From: PVC group bacterium
GTDB taxonomy: Bacteria; Auribacterota; Erginobacteria; Erginobacterales; Erginobacteraceae
Direction: 5' to 3'
DNA length: 46,418 bases
NCBI GenBank assembly: GCA_003561965.1
Contig: PWXJ01000317.1
Coordinates: 1-46,418 of the forward strand
Part shown: positions 9,160-29,292 of the stretch, piece by piece
How positions within the stretch are numbered: the first letter of the stretch is position 1
Layout of the letters: the number at the start of each line of letters is the position of its first letter
Made by a program: the position numbers and the translations under genes
The notes under the pieces: model-generated
Seen by the model: only the letters and a program-made list of their open reading frames with translations
Databases searched by the model: none
Told to the model about the DNA's origin: nothing

Positions 9160-9310
9160 TGTCTTGTCTCCGGCCCCGGAAACGAACCCCCCGGGTCGGG
9201 TCGTTCTCCGGCGCCGGACCGGTCGGATTTTTCGCCCGATCCTGACTCCGCCCCAGTCACCGCCGATGTCTTTCCGGAGAAATCGTCAGGTTTTCCCCGG
9301 CGGATTGAGA

Positions 9311-10669
9311 TCACATAAAGATCCCGGCGATGGTCCCGGTCATAAAGGCGGCCAGGGTGCCGCCGATCATCGCCTTGAAGCCGATCCGGGCCAGGTCGTG
9401 GCGGCGCTTGGGGGCGATCCCGCCGATCCCGCCGATCTGGATGGCGATCGAGGAGAAGTTGGCGAATCCGCAGAGCGCGTAGGTGGCGATCACCACCGAC
9501 CGCTCGTGAAGCTCGACGCCCGACTCGAGCAGACGGGCCAGGTTGGCGTAGGCGACGAACTCGTTGATCGCCGTCTTCTGCCCCAGGAGCTGGCCGATCG
9601 TCTCGCAGTCCGACCAGGGGACCCCCATCACCCAGGCCAGGGGGGCGAAGATCCAGCCGAGCAGGGTGTCCAGGCTCAGGTTGCTGGTTATCCCGAAGAT
9701 CCAGTCCAGGAGGAACCCGAACTGCTGGATCAGGTAGTTGGCCACGGCGATCAGGGCAATGAAGGCCAGGAGCATCGCCCCGACGTTGAGGGCCAGGGTC
9801 AGGCCGGTCCCGGCCCCGGAGGCGGCGGCGTCGATGACGTTGACGTTGGTCTTGGGCAGCTTGACCCGGACCCCGCCCATCGTCTTCGGGACCTCGGTCT
9901 CCGGGTACATCAGCTTGGCCATCACGACCCCGGCCGGAGCCGACATAATGCTGGCCGAGATCAAGTGCCCGGCGATATCCGGGAAGTAGTGCCTCAGCAT
10001 CCCCACGTAGGCCGCCATCACCCCCCCGGCCACGGTGGCGAACCCCCCGACCATCACCACCATCAGCTCGGAGACCGTCATATCGTTGACGTAGGGCCTC
10101 ACCACCAGGGGGGCCTCGGTCTGGCCGACGAAGATGTTGGCCGAGGCGGAGAGGGTCTCAGCCCCGCTGGTCCCGAGAAACTTCTCCATAATCTTGGAGA
10201 AGAAGGCCACTATCTGCTGCATCACCCCCAGGTAGTAGAGGACCCCCATCAGCGAGGAGAAGAAGATGATGGTGGGCAGGACGTTGAAGGCGAAGTAGGC
10301 CCCGGTCCGGGCCATCCTCCCCGGAACCTCCACCAGCCTCCCTTCCGGTCCGACCTCCATCACCGGGACATCGTTGCGGACCAGGTTGCCGAAGATGAAC
10401 TCGGAGCCTTCCTCGGCGAAGCCCAGCAGCTTGATCACGGCGTCGTTCATCGTGGCGAAGAAGACCTCCCCGGGGGCGGTCTCGACGCCGAAGCTGGACT
10501 TGATCAGCAGATTGAGGGGGCTGTTGGGAAGGATGATGATCGCGAAGAAGACCTGGAGGGCGATCCCCAGCACCAGGACCCGGAAGCTGATCTTCTTCTT
10601 GTTGTTGGAGAAGAGAAAGGCGATGAGAATCAGGACCAGCATCCCGGACAGACTGACCAGTCGATACAT
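9311..10669 (-). CDS. nupC: NupC/CNT-family concentrative nucleoside transporter
   Basis: 452 aa and polytopic. The C-terminal signature is CGFANFSSIAIQIGGIGGIAPKRRHDLARIGFKAMIGGTLAAFMTGTIAGIF. Confidence 0.85.
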   Translation of the reverse strand: MYRLVSLSGMLVLILIAFLFSNNKKKISFRVLVLGIALQVFFAIIILPNSPLNLLIKSSFGVETAPGEVFFATMNDAVIKLLGFAEEGSEFIFGNLVRNDVPVMEVGPEGRLVEVPGRMARTGAYFAFNVLPTIIFFSSLMGVLYYLGVMQQIVAFFSKIMEKFLGTSGAETLSASANIFVGQTEAPLVVRPYVNDMTVSELMVVMVGGFATVAGGVMAAYVGMLRHYFPDIAGHLISASIMSAPAGVVMAKLMYPETEVPKTMGGVRVKLPKTNVNVIDAAASGAGTGLTLALNVGAMLLAFIALIAVANYLIQQFGFLLDWIFGITSNLSLDTLLGWIFAPLAWVMGVPWSDCETIGQLLGQKTAINEFVAYANLARLLESGVELHERSVVIATYALCGFANFSSIAIQIGGIGGIAPKRRHDLARIGFKAMIGGTLAAFMTGTIAGIFM

Positions 10670-10690
10670 AACCTTCCCCCTTTGAAACGG

Positions 10691-11482
10691 TTAGCTCTCG
10701 GAAATTTCCTTTCGGGAATGGCGGCAGATTCCCCGACGGGCCCGGCGGACGAAATCGACGAGTGCATCGGCCCCCGGGCCGAGGTTCTCCTTTTCGATCT
10801 CGGCCGCCGCCTGGCTGGTGTTGAGCCCGGAGTGGTAAAGCAATCGATAGGCCCGCTTCACCTGCCGCCGGTCGGCGGGCGAAAACCCGGCCCGGCGGAG
10901 GCCGACCAGGTTCAGGCCCATCACCAGCGACCGCTCCGCCACCATCATATAGGGCGGAACCGACTTGGTCACCCGGGCCCCGCCCCCGAGCATCGTCAGG
11001 GTTCCGATATCGCAGAACTGGTGGATGACGACGTTGCCGGAGATGAAAGCCCTGTCTTCGACGTGGACGTGGCCGGCCAGAAGCGCCCCGTTGGCGACGA
11101 TCACCTCGTTGCCGAGCACGCAGTCGTGGCCGAGATGGGAATAGGCCATCAGGTAGTTGTTGTCCCCGACCACCGTGGCCGAACCTTCCTTCGAGCCCCG
11201 GTGGATCGAACAACCTTCCCGGATGGTGTTGCCCTTCCCGATCCGGAGGAAAGACTCCGCCCCTTCGTAGGAGAGGTCCTGGGGAGCGTTTCCGAGAACG
11301 GCGAAGGGATGGATTTCGTTATCCGGCCCGATCTCGGTATTGGAGGTGACGTAAACGTGGGCGATCAGCCGGGTCCCGGCGGCGATCTTCGCCTTCCCTT
11401 CGACGATCGAGTAGGGACCGATCTCGGCCCCGGGGTCAATCTTGGCGGCCGGATCAACGACTGCCGTCTGGTGGATAGCCAT
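10691..11482 (-). CDS. lpxA: acyl-ACP--UDP-N-acetylglucosamine O-acyltransferase
   Basis: IHQTAVVDPAAKIDPGAEIGPYSIVEG hexapeptide repeats, a HLGHDCVLGN block and the C-terminal helical domain GLNLVGLRRAGFS...AYRLLY. Confidence 0.92.
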   Translation of the reverse strand: MAIHQTAVVDPAAKIDPGAEIGPYSIVEGKAKIAAGTRLIAHVYVTSNTEIGPDNEIHPFAVLGNAPQDLSYEGAESFLRIGKGNTIREGCSIHRGSKEGSATVVGDNNYLMAYSHLGHDCVLGNEVIVANGALLAGHVHVEDRAFISGNVVIHQFCDIGTLTMLGGGARVTKSVPPYMMVAERSLVMGLNLVGLRRAGFSPADRRQVKRAYRLLYHSGLNTSQAAAEIEKENLGPGADALVDFVRRARRGICRHSRKEISES

Positions 11483-11590
11483 TACAACGCCTCATAACCG
11501 TAAACGGTCGGGTCAAAAGAAGACCATAATAACAGAACCTTCACCCCCGCCAATAAAAAACCAACCTAAAAAAACCAAACTCGGAAAAAG

Positions 11591-11624
11591 ATTACCCATT
11601 CCCAGGGGCATTAAATCGGGTAAT
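11591..11624 (-). terminator. weak hairpin plus T-tract after the paralog operon
   Basis: On the minus strand ATTACCC (11624-11618) pairs with GGGTAAT (11597-11591) across a 20-nt loop, followed by CTTTTTCC. The stem is short and the loop large, so this call is tentative. Confidence 0.3.
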
Positions 11625-12642
11625 GGTCCGGCTGCTTCTTCGAGATATTGAAACTGATATCCACCGCCACCGCCTCGTAGGTCCGCTTCCGGTCGGTGAT
11701 CCGCAGCAGGCGGCCCTCCAGCCAGATCCGCTCCCCCTCCCAGTACTCCCCCCGGACCGAACCGTCGTAACAGACCACCCGGATATCCTCCCGCTCCTTC
11801 CCGTTGAGGAAGACGTCCTTGAGCTCGAGGATGATCGGGAGGTAGGCGTTGTGAGTATCGTCGGCGATGGTCCCGCTCACCGTGACGTCATCTTCGATCA
11901 CCGAGATCTCGGCCTCGGAGAGGGGGACCTCGTCCCAGTCCTGATAAACGAAGAAGGGGCAGAGAAGAAACCCGTTGTGATAGACCCGGATCGGCCAGTA
12001 ACGGCCGAATTCGAAGACCCGGCGGTCGGGCTCCTCGGACAACCGGTGGAGCCGGTCGCGGACCCGGAGGTTCTCCTTCAGGGCGCCCATAAAGATCACG
12101 TCGAAATCCATATCCTCTTCTTCGATCTTCCCATAGGCCAGCGATCCGGTCACCCCCATCTTTTCCAGGGGAAAGTCCATCAGGTCGGCGGCCTGATCCG
12201 CCCAGGGCCTGACGGTATCGGGATACATCTCCCGGCAGAGCTGGAGGGAACGGGCGGGATCGAAATAGCCGACGAAATCCTCGATCGGGAACTCCAGGGT
12301 ATAATCGGCCACCAGCGGCCGGGGCTTGTCCGGGTCGAGCGAGGGATCGACCTCGTACTGCTTGACGATCTGGACATCGTTCATTATCGCCACGTGCTCG
12401 CCGTCGACCCAGGCCTTGTGCATCGCCTGGTAGCGACGGCCCCAGATATCGGAGTCTCCCTCGGCCAGGGGGTAGTAGATGATCTTACCGATGAAATAGC
12501 CCGGGGTGGGATGGTAATAGCCGTGCGAAAAGACAAAACACCCGTCCTTTCGGAGAAAATACAGTGAATCCTTGATCCGGCCCTTCAGGTCGGAGATCGG
12601 GTTGAGAAATTTCTCCATTATCTTTTCGAATTTATCGGCCAT
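11611..12642 (-). CDS. uncharacterized protein, paralog 3 of 3; putative Pol-beta-superfamily nucleotidyltransferase-like core
   Basis: 343 aa with a GAGGAGAGG RBS. It shares many blocks with the two upstream ORFs. The central motif is GVTGSLAYGKIEEEDMDFDVIF (aa 163-184, nt 12091-12156). Confidence 0.85.
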   Translation of the reverse strand: MADKFEKIMEKFLNPISDLKGRIKDSLYFLRKDGCFVFSHGYYHPTPGYFIGKIIYYPLAEGDSDIWGRRYQAMHKAWVDGEHVAIMNDVQIVKQYEVDPSLDPDKPRPLVADYTLEFPIEDFVGYFDPARSLQLCREMYPDTVRPWADQAADLMDFPLEKMGVTGSLAYGKIEEEDMDFDVIFMGALKENLRVRDRLHRLSEEPDRRVFEFGRYWPIRVYHNGFLLCPFFVYQDWDEVPLSEAEISVIEDDVTVSGTIADDTHNAYLPIILELKDVFLNGKEREDIRVVCYDGSVRGEYWEGERIWLEGRLLRITDRKRTYEAVAVDISFNISKKQPDHYPI

Positions 12643-12662
12643 AACCTCTCCTCATCGAATTA

Positions 12663-13745
12663 TCAAACCTCCGCCCGGGCTTCCCTGTCGCTTTCGACGG
12701 CCTCCGGGGAGGAGGGAACCGACTGCCGGGCGGGGTCCTCGCCGATTTTTTTGATGTTATCCCAGAGCGTGACCAGCAACGCCGGAAAACTATCCCCCAG
12801 CTGATTGACTTCGACCAGGCGGGCTTGCATCTTCAGGAAATCGCCGTTGAAGTACTCGCCCCTCAGGGCGCCGTCGTAGATGATCAGGGGCAGCGGTTCG
12901 GCGGTTTTACCGTCAATCGTCAGATCCTCCAGGGGAAGCAGCGGCGGCATATAGTTGGTGTGGGTGTCGTCGGCCACCACCCCGGAAGCCTCGACGTCTT
13001 CCCGGATCACCTCGACGGAGAAATCCCGCAGGGGCGCGTCCTCCCACCGCTCGTAGGTGAAGAAGGGGCAGATCAGGTACCCCCCCTGGTACATCCGCAT
13101 CGGCCACCAGCGGCCGAACTCGATCACCCGGTGCTCGGGGAGGACCGAGAGGGAACGGATGGTCCGGTAGACCCGGCGGTTGTCCTCGATCGACCCGGGG
13201 ATGACCAGGTCGAGGTCGTCGTCGCCCTCCTCGTGTCGGCCGTAGGCCAGCGAGCCGGTCAGCCCGAGTTTCTCCCAGGGAACCCCCAGGGCCTCGGCCG
13301 CCATCCGGGTCCCTTCGCCGACCCAGGGGTAGAGGTCGAGGCAGGCCCGGAGGGAATGGACCGGGTCGAAAAAACCGACACAGTCGGCCAGGGGAAACTC
13401 CATCTCGTACTCGACAAAGACCGGGCGGGGGGCGTCGGGGTCGAGCGAGGGGTCGATCTCCCCGTGAGCCCGGATCTGCTCGGGGTGGCCGATGTAGATG
13501 CACTCGTCCCCGACCATCTTCTTCGTGGTGCAGCCGTACTCCCGTCCGAAGATATCGATATCCCCGCCCGGCTTCGGGTAATAGATAATCTTGCCGTACA
13601 TCCCGCCTTCCGGGTGGCAGTAACCCTCGGTAAAGATGAAACTGCCGTCCCGGCGGAGGAAGTAGAGGGAATCGGTGGCCCGACCCCCTTCCAGTTCCGA
13701 AAGCGGGCGCATAAACTTCTCGATCATTTCCTCGAAATTCCGCAT
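12663..13745 (-). CDS. uncharacterized protein, paralog 2 of 3; putative nucleotidyltransferase-like core
   Basis: 360 aa. The motif is GLTGSLAYGRHEEGDDDLDLVI. Shared blocks include LYFLRRDGSF, DPSLDPDAPRP, EFGRWWPMRMY, DDTHTNYMP and YDGALRGEYFNG. It has an extra acidic C-terminal tail. Confidence 0.85.
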   Translation of the reverse strand: MRNFEEMIEKFMRPLSELEGGRATDSLYFLRRDGSFIFTEGYCHPEGGMYGKIIYYPKPGGDIDIFGREYGCTTKKMVGDECIYIGHPEQIRAHGEIDPSLDPDAPRPVFVEYEMEFPLADCVGFFDPVHSLRACLDLYPWVGEGTRMAAEALGVPWEKLGLTGSLAYGRHEEGDDDLDLVIPGSIEDNRRVYRTIRSLSVLPEHRVIEFGRWWPMRMYQGGYLICPFFTYERWEDAPLRDFSVEVIREDVEASGVVADDTHTNYMPPLLPLEDLTIDGKTAEPLPLIIYDGALRGEYFNGDFLKMQARLVEVNQLGDSFPALLVTLWDNIKKIGEDPARQSVPSSPEAVESDREARAEV

Positions 13746-13766
13746 CGTTCTCTTCTGGTCAATTGC

Positions 13767-14774
13767 TTAATTTTCCTTGTTGATCTGGTCGCTCAGGGTG
13801 ACCAGTAGGGCTTCTTCTTCGCTCCCCCCCTTCTCGATCAGGATCCGGCGGGCGACGAACTTCAGGTAATCCCCGTTGAAGTACTCCCCCCGGAGCGATC
13901 CGTCGTAAATCACCAGGTTGAGGTCGGGGGATTTCTTCCCGTTCAAGAGCAGGTGAGAGAGCCGGACAATCGAGGGCATATAGATCGAGTGGGTATCGTC
14001 ATCGACCATCCCCACCCCCTTGACATCCTCTTCCAGAACCTTGATCCGGCAGTCCCGGAGGGGGATCTCTTCTTCCAGGCGGTAGTTGAAGAAGGAGCAG
14101 ATCATCATCTTCTTCCAGTAAAACCGGATCGGCCACCAGCGGCCGAACTCGAAGACCCGGTTGCGGGGATCCCGGGTCAGCTCCCGGATTTTCGCCAGGA
14201 CTTCCCGATTCTCGGCGAGCGTCCCGTACCAGACCAGGTCGATGTCGTCGTCGGGGTCCTCGAACTTCCCGTAGCAGGTGGAACCGGTACAGCCGAGCCG
14301 GGAGAGGGGAACGTCGAAACCGGCGCGGATGTCGTCGATGGAATTCTTCACCGTGGGATAGATCTCCATCGCCGTCCGCAGGGAGTGGCGGTGTTCGAAG
14401 ACCCCGGAAAAATCGCCCAGGGGAAACTCGACGTGATATTCCTCGTAAACCGGCCGGGGACGGGAAGGGTCGAGGCCGGGAGAGAGCTCAAACTGGAGCC
14501 GGAGCTGTTCGGGATGGGGGATCAGGACCAGTTCCCCGTCCACCACCTTCTTGTAGCTGGAGCGGAACTTTCTCCCGAAGATGTCGGTATCTCCGGCCGG
14601 GTCGGGGGAGAGCATCACCTTGCCCATCAGCCCCCCTTGAGGATGGAGATAACCCTCGGTGAACACGAATGCCCCGTCTTGCCGGAGAAAATAATAGGCG
14701 TCCCCCACCCCCATTTCCAGGCTGGAGAGGGGCTGGAGAAAACGTGAAATCATCTGTTCATAGAGGTCGTTCAT
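13767..14774 (-). CDS. uncharacterized protein, paralog 1 of 3; putative nucleotidyltransferase-like core
   Basis: 335 aa with a GAGGTAAG RBS. The motif is GCTGSTCYGKFEDPDDDIDLVW. Shared blocks include YYFLRQDGAF, EFGRWWPIRFY, DDTHSIYMP and YDGSLRGEYFNG. Confidence 0.85.
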   Translation of the reverse strand: MNDLYEQMISRFLQPLSSLEMGVGDAYYFLRQDGAFVFTEGYLHPQGGLMGKVMLSPDPAGDTDIFGRKFRSSYKKVVDGELVLIPHPEQLRLQFELSPGLDPSRPRPVYEEYHVEFPLGDFSGVFEHRHSLRTAMEIYPTVKNSIDDIRAGFDVPLSRLGCTGSTCYGKFEDPDDDIDLVWYGTLAENREVLAKIRELTRDPRNRVFEFGRWWPIRFYWKKMMICSFFNYRLEEEIPLRDCRIKVLEEDVKGVGMVDDDTHSIYMPSIVRLSHLLLNGKKSPDLNLVIYDGSLRGEYFNGDYLKFVARRILIEKGGSEEEALLVTLSDQINKEN

Positions 14775-15005
14775 ATAATAATCTTACCTCGCGGTTACTG
14801 CCGGGGCCGGAAACTTCGTGAGCGAAATCGAGGGCTGGCATCAGAAACAGGGGGGTAATTTAGGCGAGCCGATCCTTCCTGTCAATCTTAAAATCCCGGG
14901 GCCGCCGGTCTGTCTCCAGGGAGAATTTTTTAATTTTTTCCTACCGGAACCAGAGTCGAAGGGGATATACTCGGAACAATCTGAACGGGTAAGGAGGCAT
15001 CGAAA
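14775..15005. promoter_or_regulatory. divergent intergenic region between the paralog operon and the L,D-transpeptidase gene
   Basis: A 231-nt non-coding gap between divergently oriented genes. An AAGGAGG RBS precedes the 15006 ATG. No specific -35/-10 boxes are assigned. Confidence 0.4.
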
Positions 15006-28308: not shown

Positions 28309-29292
28309 TTGTCAGTGAATCCGCCTCCGGACAAGCCGCCGAGATCGCTCTGGATCCTCGATCCCTGGGAACAGCTCCGGATCGAGCGCGATACCTCGGT
28401 CCTGCTGATGAACGAGGCCCTCCAACAGGGCTGGCCGGTCCACTCCGCCTCCGACCGGGAGATCTACCGGAACAACCGCGGCCTCTTCGCCCGGGCCCGC
28501 CGACACGGGGAACCGATAACCCCGGCGGTCGCCGGCCGGCCGGCGGCCGGGGAGGAACTCGACCTGGAGGGGTTCGACCTGGTGATCATCCGCAAGGACC
28601 CTCCCTTCGACGAGACCTACCTGGCGCTGCTGCTCCTCCTGGCCGGGCTGCGGCGGCCCCGGGTCGTCAACCCCCCGGAAACCCTGCTGGCCTGCAACGA
28701 AAAACTCTCGATCTTTTTCTTCCCCGATTACATCCCGCCCACCCTGGTCACCGCCTCCCCGGACCGGATCGGGGATTTCCTCCGGCAAGCCGGCGGGGCG
28801 GCGGTCCTCAAACCGCTCTTCTCCTGCAGCGGCCGGGGGGTCCACCTGCTCCGCTCCGGCGCGACCGGGCTGGAAGAGACCCTCGCCGCCGCCACCGCCG
28901 GGGGCCGGCAGGCGGTGATGCTCCAGCGCTACCTCCCGGCGGTGACCGGGGGGGAGACCCGGGTCTTTCTCCTCGGCGATCGGATTCTTTCGGTGATGAA
29001 GAAAGTCCCCGAACCGGGCTCGTTCAAGGCCAACTTCGACGCCGGCGCCCGGGGGGAACCCCACCGGCTGACCGGCCGGGAGCGGGAGATCTGCTTCCGG
29101 GTCGGGAAATTCTGCCGGCGCCGGGGGATCGCCCTGGCCGCCCTCGACCTGATCGACGGCTGTCTCTCCGAGTTCAACATCACCAGCCCGGGGCTCCTGG
29201 TCGAATCCAACCGGGTCAACCGGACCCGGTGCCAGGAGGAGGCCGTCAGATTCTTAAGCTCTCGAGCAGCGAATCCGGCCCCCCGGCCCTGA
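28309..29292 (+). CDS. gshB: glutathione synthetase (prokaryotic ATP-grasp type)
   Basis: TTG start as given by the track. Blocks are ILDPWEQLRIERDTSVLLMNEA, IIRKDPPFD, VVNPPETLLACNEKL, VLKPLFSCSGRGV and GETRVFLLGDRI...FKANFDAGA...DLIDGCLSEFNITSP. Confidence 0.85.
   Translation: MSVNPPPDKPPRSLWILDPWEQLRIERDTSVLLMNEALQQGWPVHSASDREIYRNNRGLFARARRHGEPITPAVAGRPAAGEELDLEGFDLVIIRKDPPFDETYLALLLLLAGLRRPRVVNPPETLLACNEKLSIFFFPDYIPPTLVTASPDRIGDFLRQAGGAAVLKPLFSCSGRGVHLLRSGATGLEETLAAATAGGRQAVMLQRYLPAVTGGETRVFLLGDRILSVMKKVPEPGSFKANFDAGARGEPHRLTGREREICFRVGKFCRRRGIALAALDLIDGCLSEFNITSPGLLVESNRVNRTRCQEEAVRFLSSRAANPAPRP

Follow-up and report, generated by a model that had tools for sequence, protein, structure and literature searches.

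What do three adjacent, homologous genes that match no recognisable family do for an uncultured bacterium? The question is raised by contig PWXJ01000317.1 of a PVC group bacterium from the family Erginobacteraceae (Auribacterota; assembly GCA_003561965.1), which we analysed over positions 1–46,418 (hereafter the window, meaning this whole stretch of 46,418 nucleotides). It contains a cassette of three consecutive open reading frames (ORFs) on the minus strand: gene A (13767–14774, 335 amino acids), gene B (12663–13745, 360 amino acids) and gene C (11611–12642, 343 amino acids). They are separated by minus-strand spacers of only 21 nt (A–B, 13746–13766) and 20 nt (B–C, 12643–12662), and each start is preceded by a purine-rich stretch resembling a ribosome-binding site (GAGGTAAG, GAAGAGA in the A–B spacer and GAGGAG in the B–C spacer). 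An earlier reading of this DNA, made from the sequence only, had described this arrangement of ORFs, spacers and ribosome-binding sites, and its coordinates proved to be exact. Our answer to the question is that A, B and C are members of an unnamed family, with a new domain architecture inside the known Pol-beta nucleotidyltransferase (NTase) superfamily. As to function, we tentatively propose, with somewhat less than even confidence, that they carry out nucleotidyl or phosphoribosyl transfer on a small molecule or cofactor, acting sequentially or as a hetero-oligomer.

The three proteins align from end to end with 43–49% pairwise identity and 114 invariant columns. Every shared motif listed in the sequence-only reading is among these invariant columns, and judged by the alignment the resemblance is far beyond chance. 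Each gene has orthologs at 62–94% identity in other genomes, and comparisons with orthologs for which dS is unsaturated give ratios of nonsynonymous to synonymous substitution (dN/dS) of 0.11–0.20 (0.11–0.14 for gene A against its close orthologs, 0.12–0.20 for gene C), that is, purifying selection on all copies. The order A-B-C is identical in 12 Candidatus Auribacterota/PVC genomes (the orthogroups of A and C comprise 12 genomes each), and a scan of loci with a hidden Markov model (HMM) of the family, which matches gene A at E = 2e-143 and gene C at E = 5e-145, found a second triple in seven further genomes. In the loci examined, the triple is always complete and its gene order is constant. 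These comparisons indicate that the triplication is old, older than the divergence of at least 12 genomes in the sample, and that each copy is individually maintained, as had been suspected. The genes were also called deeply diverged, which is apt as to the age of the triplication; the term is relative, because the paralogs are still 43–49% identical. Identity matrices gave no resolution of one-to-one orthology between the triples of the two clades (clade I and clade II).

Scans of A, B and C against Pfam, NCBIfam, PADLOC and PHROGs found nothing at threshold, and searches of Protein Data Bank (PDB) sequences with the family profiles found nothing meaningful, so the earlier statement that the genes belong to no characterised family holds. 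A literature search, in which coverage of subscription journals was mostly missing, found no paper on the window family, on COG1665 or on the sister family described below. Below threshold, the Pfam model NTP_transf_2 (PF01909) matches residues 159–190 of protein B with 15.5 bits, the cut-off being 21, and does not match A or C. The same model is matched at E ≤ 1 by 27 of 58 members of the family, again sub-threshold (best E = 7.4e-5), and it is matched above its gathering cut-off by two distant relatives, P0228 (27.9 bits) and P0188 (27.3 bits), which are tied to the window family by profile search. When a model of protein B was compared with solved structures using Foldseek, the only NTase among the top fold matches was ANT(2'')-Ia (PDB 5cfu), to which the core has a weak match (E = 0.047, probability 0.82, template modelling (TM) score on the target 0.32), and no match reached E ≤ 0.001. 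Sequence and model together support a core that is Pol-beta NTase-like, as had been proposed.

The residues that define such a core are almost perfectly conserved. In protein B the catalytic-motif segment spans 13119–13256 on the minus strand, with G164-S165 at 13251–13256, D177 at 13215–13217, D179 at 13209–13211 and E209, 30 residues past D179, at 13119–13121. G164, S165, D177, D179, R217 and C226 are invariant in 91 of 91 family ORFs (which fall in 18 orthogroups), and E209 is conserved in 90 of the 91, so the observation that all three copies keep the motif residues extends to essentially the whole family. All 91 have the Pol-beta feature of an hG[GS] turn with [DE]x[DE] on the strand that comes next, and the model has the strands in this order. 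C226 (13068–13070) lies on the long strand that follows the DxD strand, and its counterpart in the sister family is an invariant histidine (H236); judged by this alignment it could be a metal ligand or a catalytic residue, at the place where the third carboxylate often sits. E209, put forward earlier as a possible third carboxylate, has no clear conserved acidic counterpart when the two families are aligned with hhalign.

We modelled protein B with AlphaFold2 using 58 homologs and obtained a confident structure (predicted local distance difference test (pLDDT) 93.7, predicted TM score 0.90) with three domains, all encoded on the minus strand. The first (residues 1–127; 13365–13745) is beta-rich, and retained a pLDDT of 92.3 when modelled alone. 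The second is the NTase core (residues 128–235; 13041–13364), which in the model runs helix, strand, GS, helix, strand with DxD, helix. The third (residues 236–340; 12726–13040) resembles an OB barrel in fold searches, and after residue 340 there is an acidic, helical tail of low confidence. Proteins A and C have the same three-domain layout. With the full model, Foldseek searches of the PDB and viral libraries found local OB matches and the one weak NTase match, but no full-length match. The best local matches of the third domain are to 7f2n, 7vum, 6cqo and 1eqq, with probabilities of 0.8–1.0, TM scores on the target of at most 0.65 (7vum: TM 0.65, probability 1.0) and marginal E-values of 0.002–0.05; viral single-stranded DNA-binding proteins (SSBs) also match. 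The N-terminal domain searched alone found nothing better than E = 0.5, its matches being faint likenesses to avidin, Sm and SH3-like barrels. On the models, then, the C-terminal domain is an OB-like barrel and the N-terminal domain has no significant known structural relative and would be a new fold. Of the two flanking domains that the sequence-only reading could not place, the N-terminal one remains so and the C-terminal one is predicted to have a home.

The family is rare. Among 5.8 billion proteins searched there were only 89 relatives, of 301–398 amino acids (most 330–360) and none with a precomputed Pfam domain; the few of these with an organism name come from Candidatus Auribacterota/Aureabacteria, Euphemobacter and Wallbacteria. 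When 1.84 billion representatives were searched exhaustively with the profile, only 319 matches reached E ≤ 1e-3, and a scan of one genome per species found 35 loci, all in Auribacterota, PVC-group or unclassified metagenome-assembled genomes (MAGs). Besides the triples there are singletons, which form groups that we call D, and a conserved doublet, E/F, with counterparts in Wallbacteria at 48–51% identity. A genome thus has at least 4–6 paralogs (the triple, singles and the doublet), a number that is a lower bound since only one peptide pattern was used in the scan. The source of the window is a bacterium of soda-lake sediment. A protein identical to A is encoded on a Joint Genome Institute (JGI) contig from soda-lake sediment (SL_1KL_011_SEDDRAFT_10002325) and on contig SLKX01000205.1 of assembly GCA_007134385.1, and the order A-B-C-lpxA-nupC is conserved on both. 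The nearest named genome is that of Candidatus Erginobacter occultus, whose protein B is 89% identical in amino acid sequence.

The distant relative P0188 led to a larger sister family, with 476 members in a protein search and at least 577 metagenome stretches. Its members are about 345 amino acids long. Few are named by organism (Anaerolineae/Chloroflexi and Bathyarchaeota), and loci also occur in other uncultured lineages. NCBIfam has no model for this family, and JGI labels some of its members 'predicted nucleotidyltransferase'. An hhalign comparison of the window family with the sister family (A4) gave 98.9% probability and E = 3e-17 over 283 columns that cover all three domains, at an identity of about 20%. 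We counted 120 members in 76 sister-family loci; 38 of the 76 have two or three, often as tandem pairs (loci L047, 5984–8035, and L051–L130).

Here the sister-family genes lie in operon-like arrays with notably consistent neighbors. A RimK-type ATP-grasp gene is present in 20 loci, on the same strand and at a median distance of 30 bp, and 15 have CitG (a true CitG, at 269 bits). FwdC/FhcC occurs in 14, FTR in 13, FwdA/FhcA in eight, a gene like dihydropteroate synthase (DHPS-like; DUF6513 plus a pterin-binding domain) in seven, MCH also in seven, a GHMP kinase in six and DUF447 in five; LarB/LarC-like, ECF transporter and SSF transporter genes are recurrent too. With the sister-family gene written as [NT], the gene orders include FwdA-FTR-FwdC-RimK-[NT], CitG-[NT]-LarB-LarC-SSF-[NT], RimK...CitG-DUF447-GHMP-[NT]-[NT] and GHMP...DHPS-like-MptA-like-[NT]-[NT]. 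This set of genes matches the islands for tetrahydromethanopterin (H4MPT) one-carbon (C1) transfer and methanopterin biosynthesis in methylotrophs and archaea, in which the equivalents are the CitG-like orf7, DUF447 orf19, DHPS-like orf20, a GHMP kinase of the RFAP-synthase type and ATP-grasp ligases. At four loci (L080, L083, L092 and L099), two sister-family genes beside CitG enclose LarB-like (AIRC) and LarC-like (Ni_insertion) genes, after which come an SSF transporter gene and AP_endonuc_2.

CitG makes a 5''-triphospho-alpha-ribosyl adduct from ATP, and its partners CitX and MdcG then move this group onto a hydroxyl, releasing pyrophosphate. Because the adjacency of the sister-family gene to CitG parallels the logic of CitG with CitX or MdcG, the sister family could, by analogy and from context only, hand a triphosphoribosyl-activated intermediate of methanopterin on to the acceptor. 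To our knowledge, no enzyme is assigned to the steps that build the ribosyl-phosphate/hydroxyglutarate side chain of methanopterin. We found no literature on an NTase in methanopterin biosynthesis, in a search that mostly lacked subscription journals.

How might A, B and C themselves work? In our proposal the three genes would be one co-expressed unit of paralogous, catalytically competent enzymes. Two Mg2+ ions would be held by D177 and D179 together with E209 or a neighboring residue, and a triphosphate donor would give up a nucleotidyl or phosphoribosyl-type group to a hydroxyl on a small metabolite or cofactor precursor derived from a nucleotide, with release of pyrophosphate. The pocket for the acceptor would lie between the two barrels that flank the core, and the paralogs would take successive or alternative substrates or else form a hetero-oligomer. 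The data show homology, conservation, the layout of the domains, a retained catalytic motif, the distribution of the family and the cofactor islands around the sister family; from these we infer what chemistry is done, that the acceptor is a small molecule, and how the paralogs share the work. By analogy, what may carry over from the sister family is a metal-dependent transferase acting on a phosphoribosyl-like or nucleotide-like small molecule, usually through two or three paralogs. A role on small molecules or cofactors is suggested because the sister family lies in cofactor islands and because nucleoside and purine genes occur near the window family; the acidity of the proteins and an echo of the heme chaperone CcmE, both described below, point the same way. 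Operation through several paralogs is suggested because the triple is complete and ordered, because half of the sister loci examined hold more than one member and because all copies are under purifying selection.

The neighborhoods of the window family offer mixed guidance. The cassette lies inside an envelope-glycan region of the window (about 3700–24800). Upstream of it are three GT4 glycosyltransferase genes, Bac_transf, an M48 peptidase and LysM-YkuD, and downstream are lpxA, nupC, a GT2 gene, a sugar-1-phosphate nucleotidyltransferase, two epimerases/dehydratases, a second GT2 gene and a methyltransferase. The proximity of nupC had been taken to fit a nucleoside-related role; the adjacency is there, but nupC and lpxA adjoin the triple in one clade only and within this envelope-glycan region, so the argument is weak. 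In the second clade PNP_UDP_1, a xanthine/uracil permease (Xan_ur_permease) and CstA come before the triple, and PCMT (protein-L-isoaspartate O-methyltransferase) comes immediately after it. The D singletons have two Phosphodiest genes as flanking neighbors. In Wallbacteria, genes for Q_salvage (PF10343), DUF5591, FTCD, NUDIX, an AAA_18 kinase and guanylate kinase alternate with three or four paralogs (Wallbacteria-like loci L001, 3595–11843, and L041, 3877–10044), neighbors that suggest a theme of 7-deazapurine, pterin or guanine-nucleotide metabolism. The doublets and other singles sit among unrelated housekeeping genes (CoaX, UbiA, GatB, Omp85, TPR and histidine kinase genes). A nucleoside, nucleotide or purine flavor therefore recurs around the family, without a tight operonic link. 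As a separate observation, the DUF5591 of the Wallbacteria-like contigs is a standalone protein with a PCSKEKPY motif. We also noted, in locus L045 (4872–10797, on a contig of 33% GC), a distant member of the family fused to a C-terminal class I S-adenosylmethionine (SAM) methyltransferase, making a protein of 533 amino acids; two radical-SAM genes, one of them with SPASM, lie upstream of it and an MFS transporter gene downstream, in what looks like a small biosynthetic cluster.

Several results weigh against a role in cofactor metabolism or against the enzymatic assignment beneath it. In tblastn searches (E ≤ 1e-3) of 46 Auribacterota/Wallbacteria loci that total 739 kb and include the window, we found no CitG, FTR, MCH, Fwd/Fhc, DHPS-like, GHMP, DUF447 or LarB/C gene near the window family. 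The only matches resembling island genes in the 739 kb are two window ORFs at about 25% identity. One is RimK-like (28309–29292, plus strand; 25% identity, E = 1e-8) and lies about 14 kb from the cassette, with no linkage implied, and the other is SSF-like and about 17 kb away. Methanopterin also goes unmentioned in the published analysis of Auribacterota MAGs. Since the partner genes are missing from these loci and there is no such report, the window cassette is not a methanopterin gene set, and since no partner genes are shared, the idea of a cofactor is transferred across a distant relationship, at the roughly 20% identity given above. No window protein reaches the curated Pfam threshold, and in fold the core matches a solved NTase only weakly (5cfu). 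The neighborhoods are mixed (envelope glycan genes, Tol-Pal, PCMT, CoaX, UbiA and GatB), so that synteny or chance could account for part of the nucleoside theme. Lastly, the conserved residues that distinguish the paralogs are few (23 positions) and conservative and give no clear signal of distinct substrate pockets; they do not discriminate between functional models.

The main alternative is that these enzymes add nucleotides without a template to the 3' ends of RNA, tRNA or DNA, in tailing, repair or a CCA-like reaction, with the OB barrel binding single strands and the paralogs specialized in the manner of split CC-adding and A-adding enzymes. We consider it unlikely, while giving it serious weight. 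The C-terminal domain indeed finds its best fold matches in OB folds of the SSB and RPA type, poly(A), CCA and TUTase enzymes use the Pol-beta core for catalysis, and several paralogs with intact active-site motifs would suit stepwise addition. The fold matches, though, reach only E ~0.01 and TM 0.4–0.65 to small targets, and the proteins are strongly acidic. The three window proteins have isoelectric points (pI) of 5.1, 4.6 and 4.8 and net charges of −13 to −25, in a family whose median pI is 5.46 (other proteins of the window range from pI 4.3 to 10). The OB-like domain of B has the barrel topology of an SSB-type OB fold but, with a pI of 4.2 and a net charge of −11, not its basic or aromatic binding surface. 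This acidity argues against an SSB-like role, although specific recognition of RNA remains compatible with it. In addition, RNA-processing genes do not recur nearby, and the sister family sits in operons for cofactor biosynthesis and not for RNA metabolism. OB folds can also bind small ligands, as that of CcmE does, and the sister-family profile has a faint sequence match to CcmE (E = 0.15), a weak echo that offers a precedent for a ligand-binding OB fold.

A more ambitious form of the cofactor proposal takes in the whole superfamily, as unrecognized cofactor-assembly transferases. The sister clade, with its CitG homolog, would build the ribosyl-phosphate/hydroxyglutarate side chain of methanopterin, and the paralogs of Auribacterota and Wallbacteria, possibly as hetero-oligomers, would assemble or remodel another nucleotide-derived cofactor or metabolite. 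One candidate for this would be an unconventional C1 carrier where the Wood–Ljungdahl pathway's methyl branch appears incomplete. Stated this broadly, we think the idea improbable.

Another possibility is that the acceptor is a protein, either by AMPylation or UMPylation in the manner of GlnE and GlnD or by attachment of a phosphoribosyl prosthetic group in the manner of CitX and MdcG, perhaps in protein maintenance. Its attraction comes partly from PCMT, which at 226 bits adjoins the triple in clade II and is near it in clade I and in Tritonobacter (L002, 9053–9775; L042, 10221–10835; L014, 9842–10696), a recurrence in both Auribacterota clades that may reflect synteny or a functional link. 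It also comes from the fusion of one distant relative to a SAM methyltransferase, and from the adjacency of sister-family genes to CitG, which mirrors CitG-CitX and MdcB-MdcG in the activation of citrate lyase and malonate decarboxylase. Against this, pcm has a housekeeping role and may adjoin the triple through synteny, the methyltransferase in the fusion is a generic class I enzyme and not PCMT, and neither an acyl carrier nor any other candidate target protein recurs nearby. Homology to CitX was tried and rejected: hhalign against E. coli CitX, a single-sequence target that limits sensitivity, gave less than 1% probability for either family (0.2% for the window family, A2; 0.6% for the sister family, A4). 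We therefore rate modification of a protein as quite improbable.

The Pol-beta core, the multiple paralogs and the lineage-restricted distribution would also suit anti-phage defence or synthases of signalling nucleotides (CD-NTase/CBASS-like or other conflict systems). We rejected this reading as very improbable, because PADLOC finds no families and PHROGs no match for A, B or C, no effector, transmembrane, nuclease or TIR genes were seen nearby, the domain layout is unlike that of CD-NTases, and the genes have a stable position and order, phylum-wide inheritance that looks vertical, purifying selection and a GC content close to that of their flanks. Antibiotic resistance of the ANT or Lnu type, brought to mind by the one solved NTase that ranks among the top fold matches, ANT(2'')-Ia, is just as hard to credit for a family with at least 4–6 conserved paralogs per genome in core chromosomal contexts, two extra conserved domains, no mobile-element context seen and no sequence similarity to ANT families.

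Several candidate expression signals lie around the cassette. A candidate sigma-70-like promoter, TTGACA-17 nt-TAAATT, lies on the minus strand at 14857–14885, about 83 nt upstream of gene A; it came from a consensus scan (10 of 12 matches) and is a pattern match, not evidence of function. After gene C and before lpxA there are a weak hairpin (11610–11593; five pairs, three of them GC) and T-rich tracts (11560–11610, minus strand), a possible terminator or attenuator, and a second promoter-like site lies upstream of lpxA. Terminator-like sites as a class are not enriched in the scan (7, versus 4.2 ± 2.1 in shuffled sequences). The earlier suggestion that A-B-C is a transcript of its own is thus no more than plausible. 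Long ORFs on the plus strand (9164–11497, 11623–12567, 12825–13808 and 13953–14747) run antisense to nupC/lpxA and the cassette genes; they are up to 777 codons in length, their translations are rich in Pro, Gly and Arg, and they look like artefacts of DNA with 60% GC. The window (1–46418) has no tRNA or tmRNA genes and no Rfam families at the gathering threshold.

If the proposal for A, B and C is right, the Pol-beta superfamily contains a new domain architecture, present as several paralogs per genome across a candidate phylum and unnamed in databases. The position of the sister family beside CitG, RimK-type ligases and DHPS-like genes would make it a concrete candidate for the attachment of the ribosyl-phosphate/hydroxyglutarate moiety of methanopterin, and the substrates in Auribacterota could reveal a new nucleotide-derived metabolite or cofactor in an uncultured lineage. 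Even if the proteins are ordinary tailing enzymes or regulators, they are a new family with what would be a new N-terminal fold.

Comparison with known systems places the family as follows. Like the covalent nucleotidyltransferases (ATP-dependent ligases and capping enzymes), it would have a nucleotidyl-transfer domain followed by an OB domain, but the catalytic fold differs. We looked for their KxDG motif I, with its invariant lysine, and rejected it: the N-terminal 'LRxDG' varies (FMRRDDS, FLTSRDN, FLGKDG), and R31, D33 and G34 are outside the lists of invariant and near-invariant residues. For the C-terminal 100 residues the nearest folds, at marginal E-values, are SSB-like OB barrels, with the faint sequence match of the sister family to CcmE beside them; but these residues are acidic where SSBs are basic, and are fused to an enzyme core. 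With CitX and MdcG the parallel is one of gene context, a sister-family gene beside CitG as in citG-citX, and of proposed chemistry, in which by analogy a triphosphoribosyl-activated group would be moved with release of pyrophosphate; the domain architecture differs, and the window cassette has no CitG nearby. The sister family has the same three-domain layout, the motifs GYxHP, GxTGS, DxDL and YxG...G, and loci with multiple paralogs, but it differs in its low identity to the window family, in its location in H4MPT/methanofuran islands beside CitG and RimK, and in its invariant histidine in place of Cys226. The closest characterised likeness of the core is to the minimal Pol-beta NTases (PF01909; MNT, kanamycin NTase and ANT(2'')-Ia), with which it shares the hG-S turn, the D-x-D on the next strand, a conserved acidic residue downstream and the order of secondary-structure elements, and to whose Pfam model the wider family gives matches from sub-threshold to above threshold. 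We detected neither a HEPN partner nor a helical C-terminal substrate domain for the window family; instead, in contrast to the minimal enzymes, the predicted core is sandwiched between a 127-residue N-terminal beta domain and an OB-like barrel.

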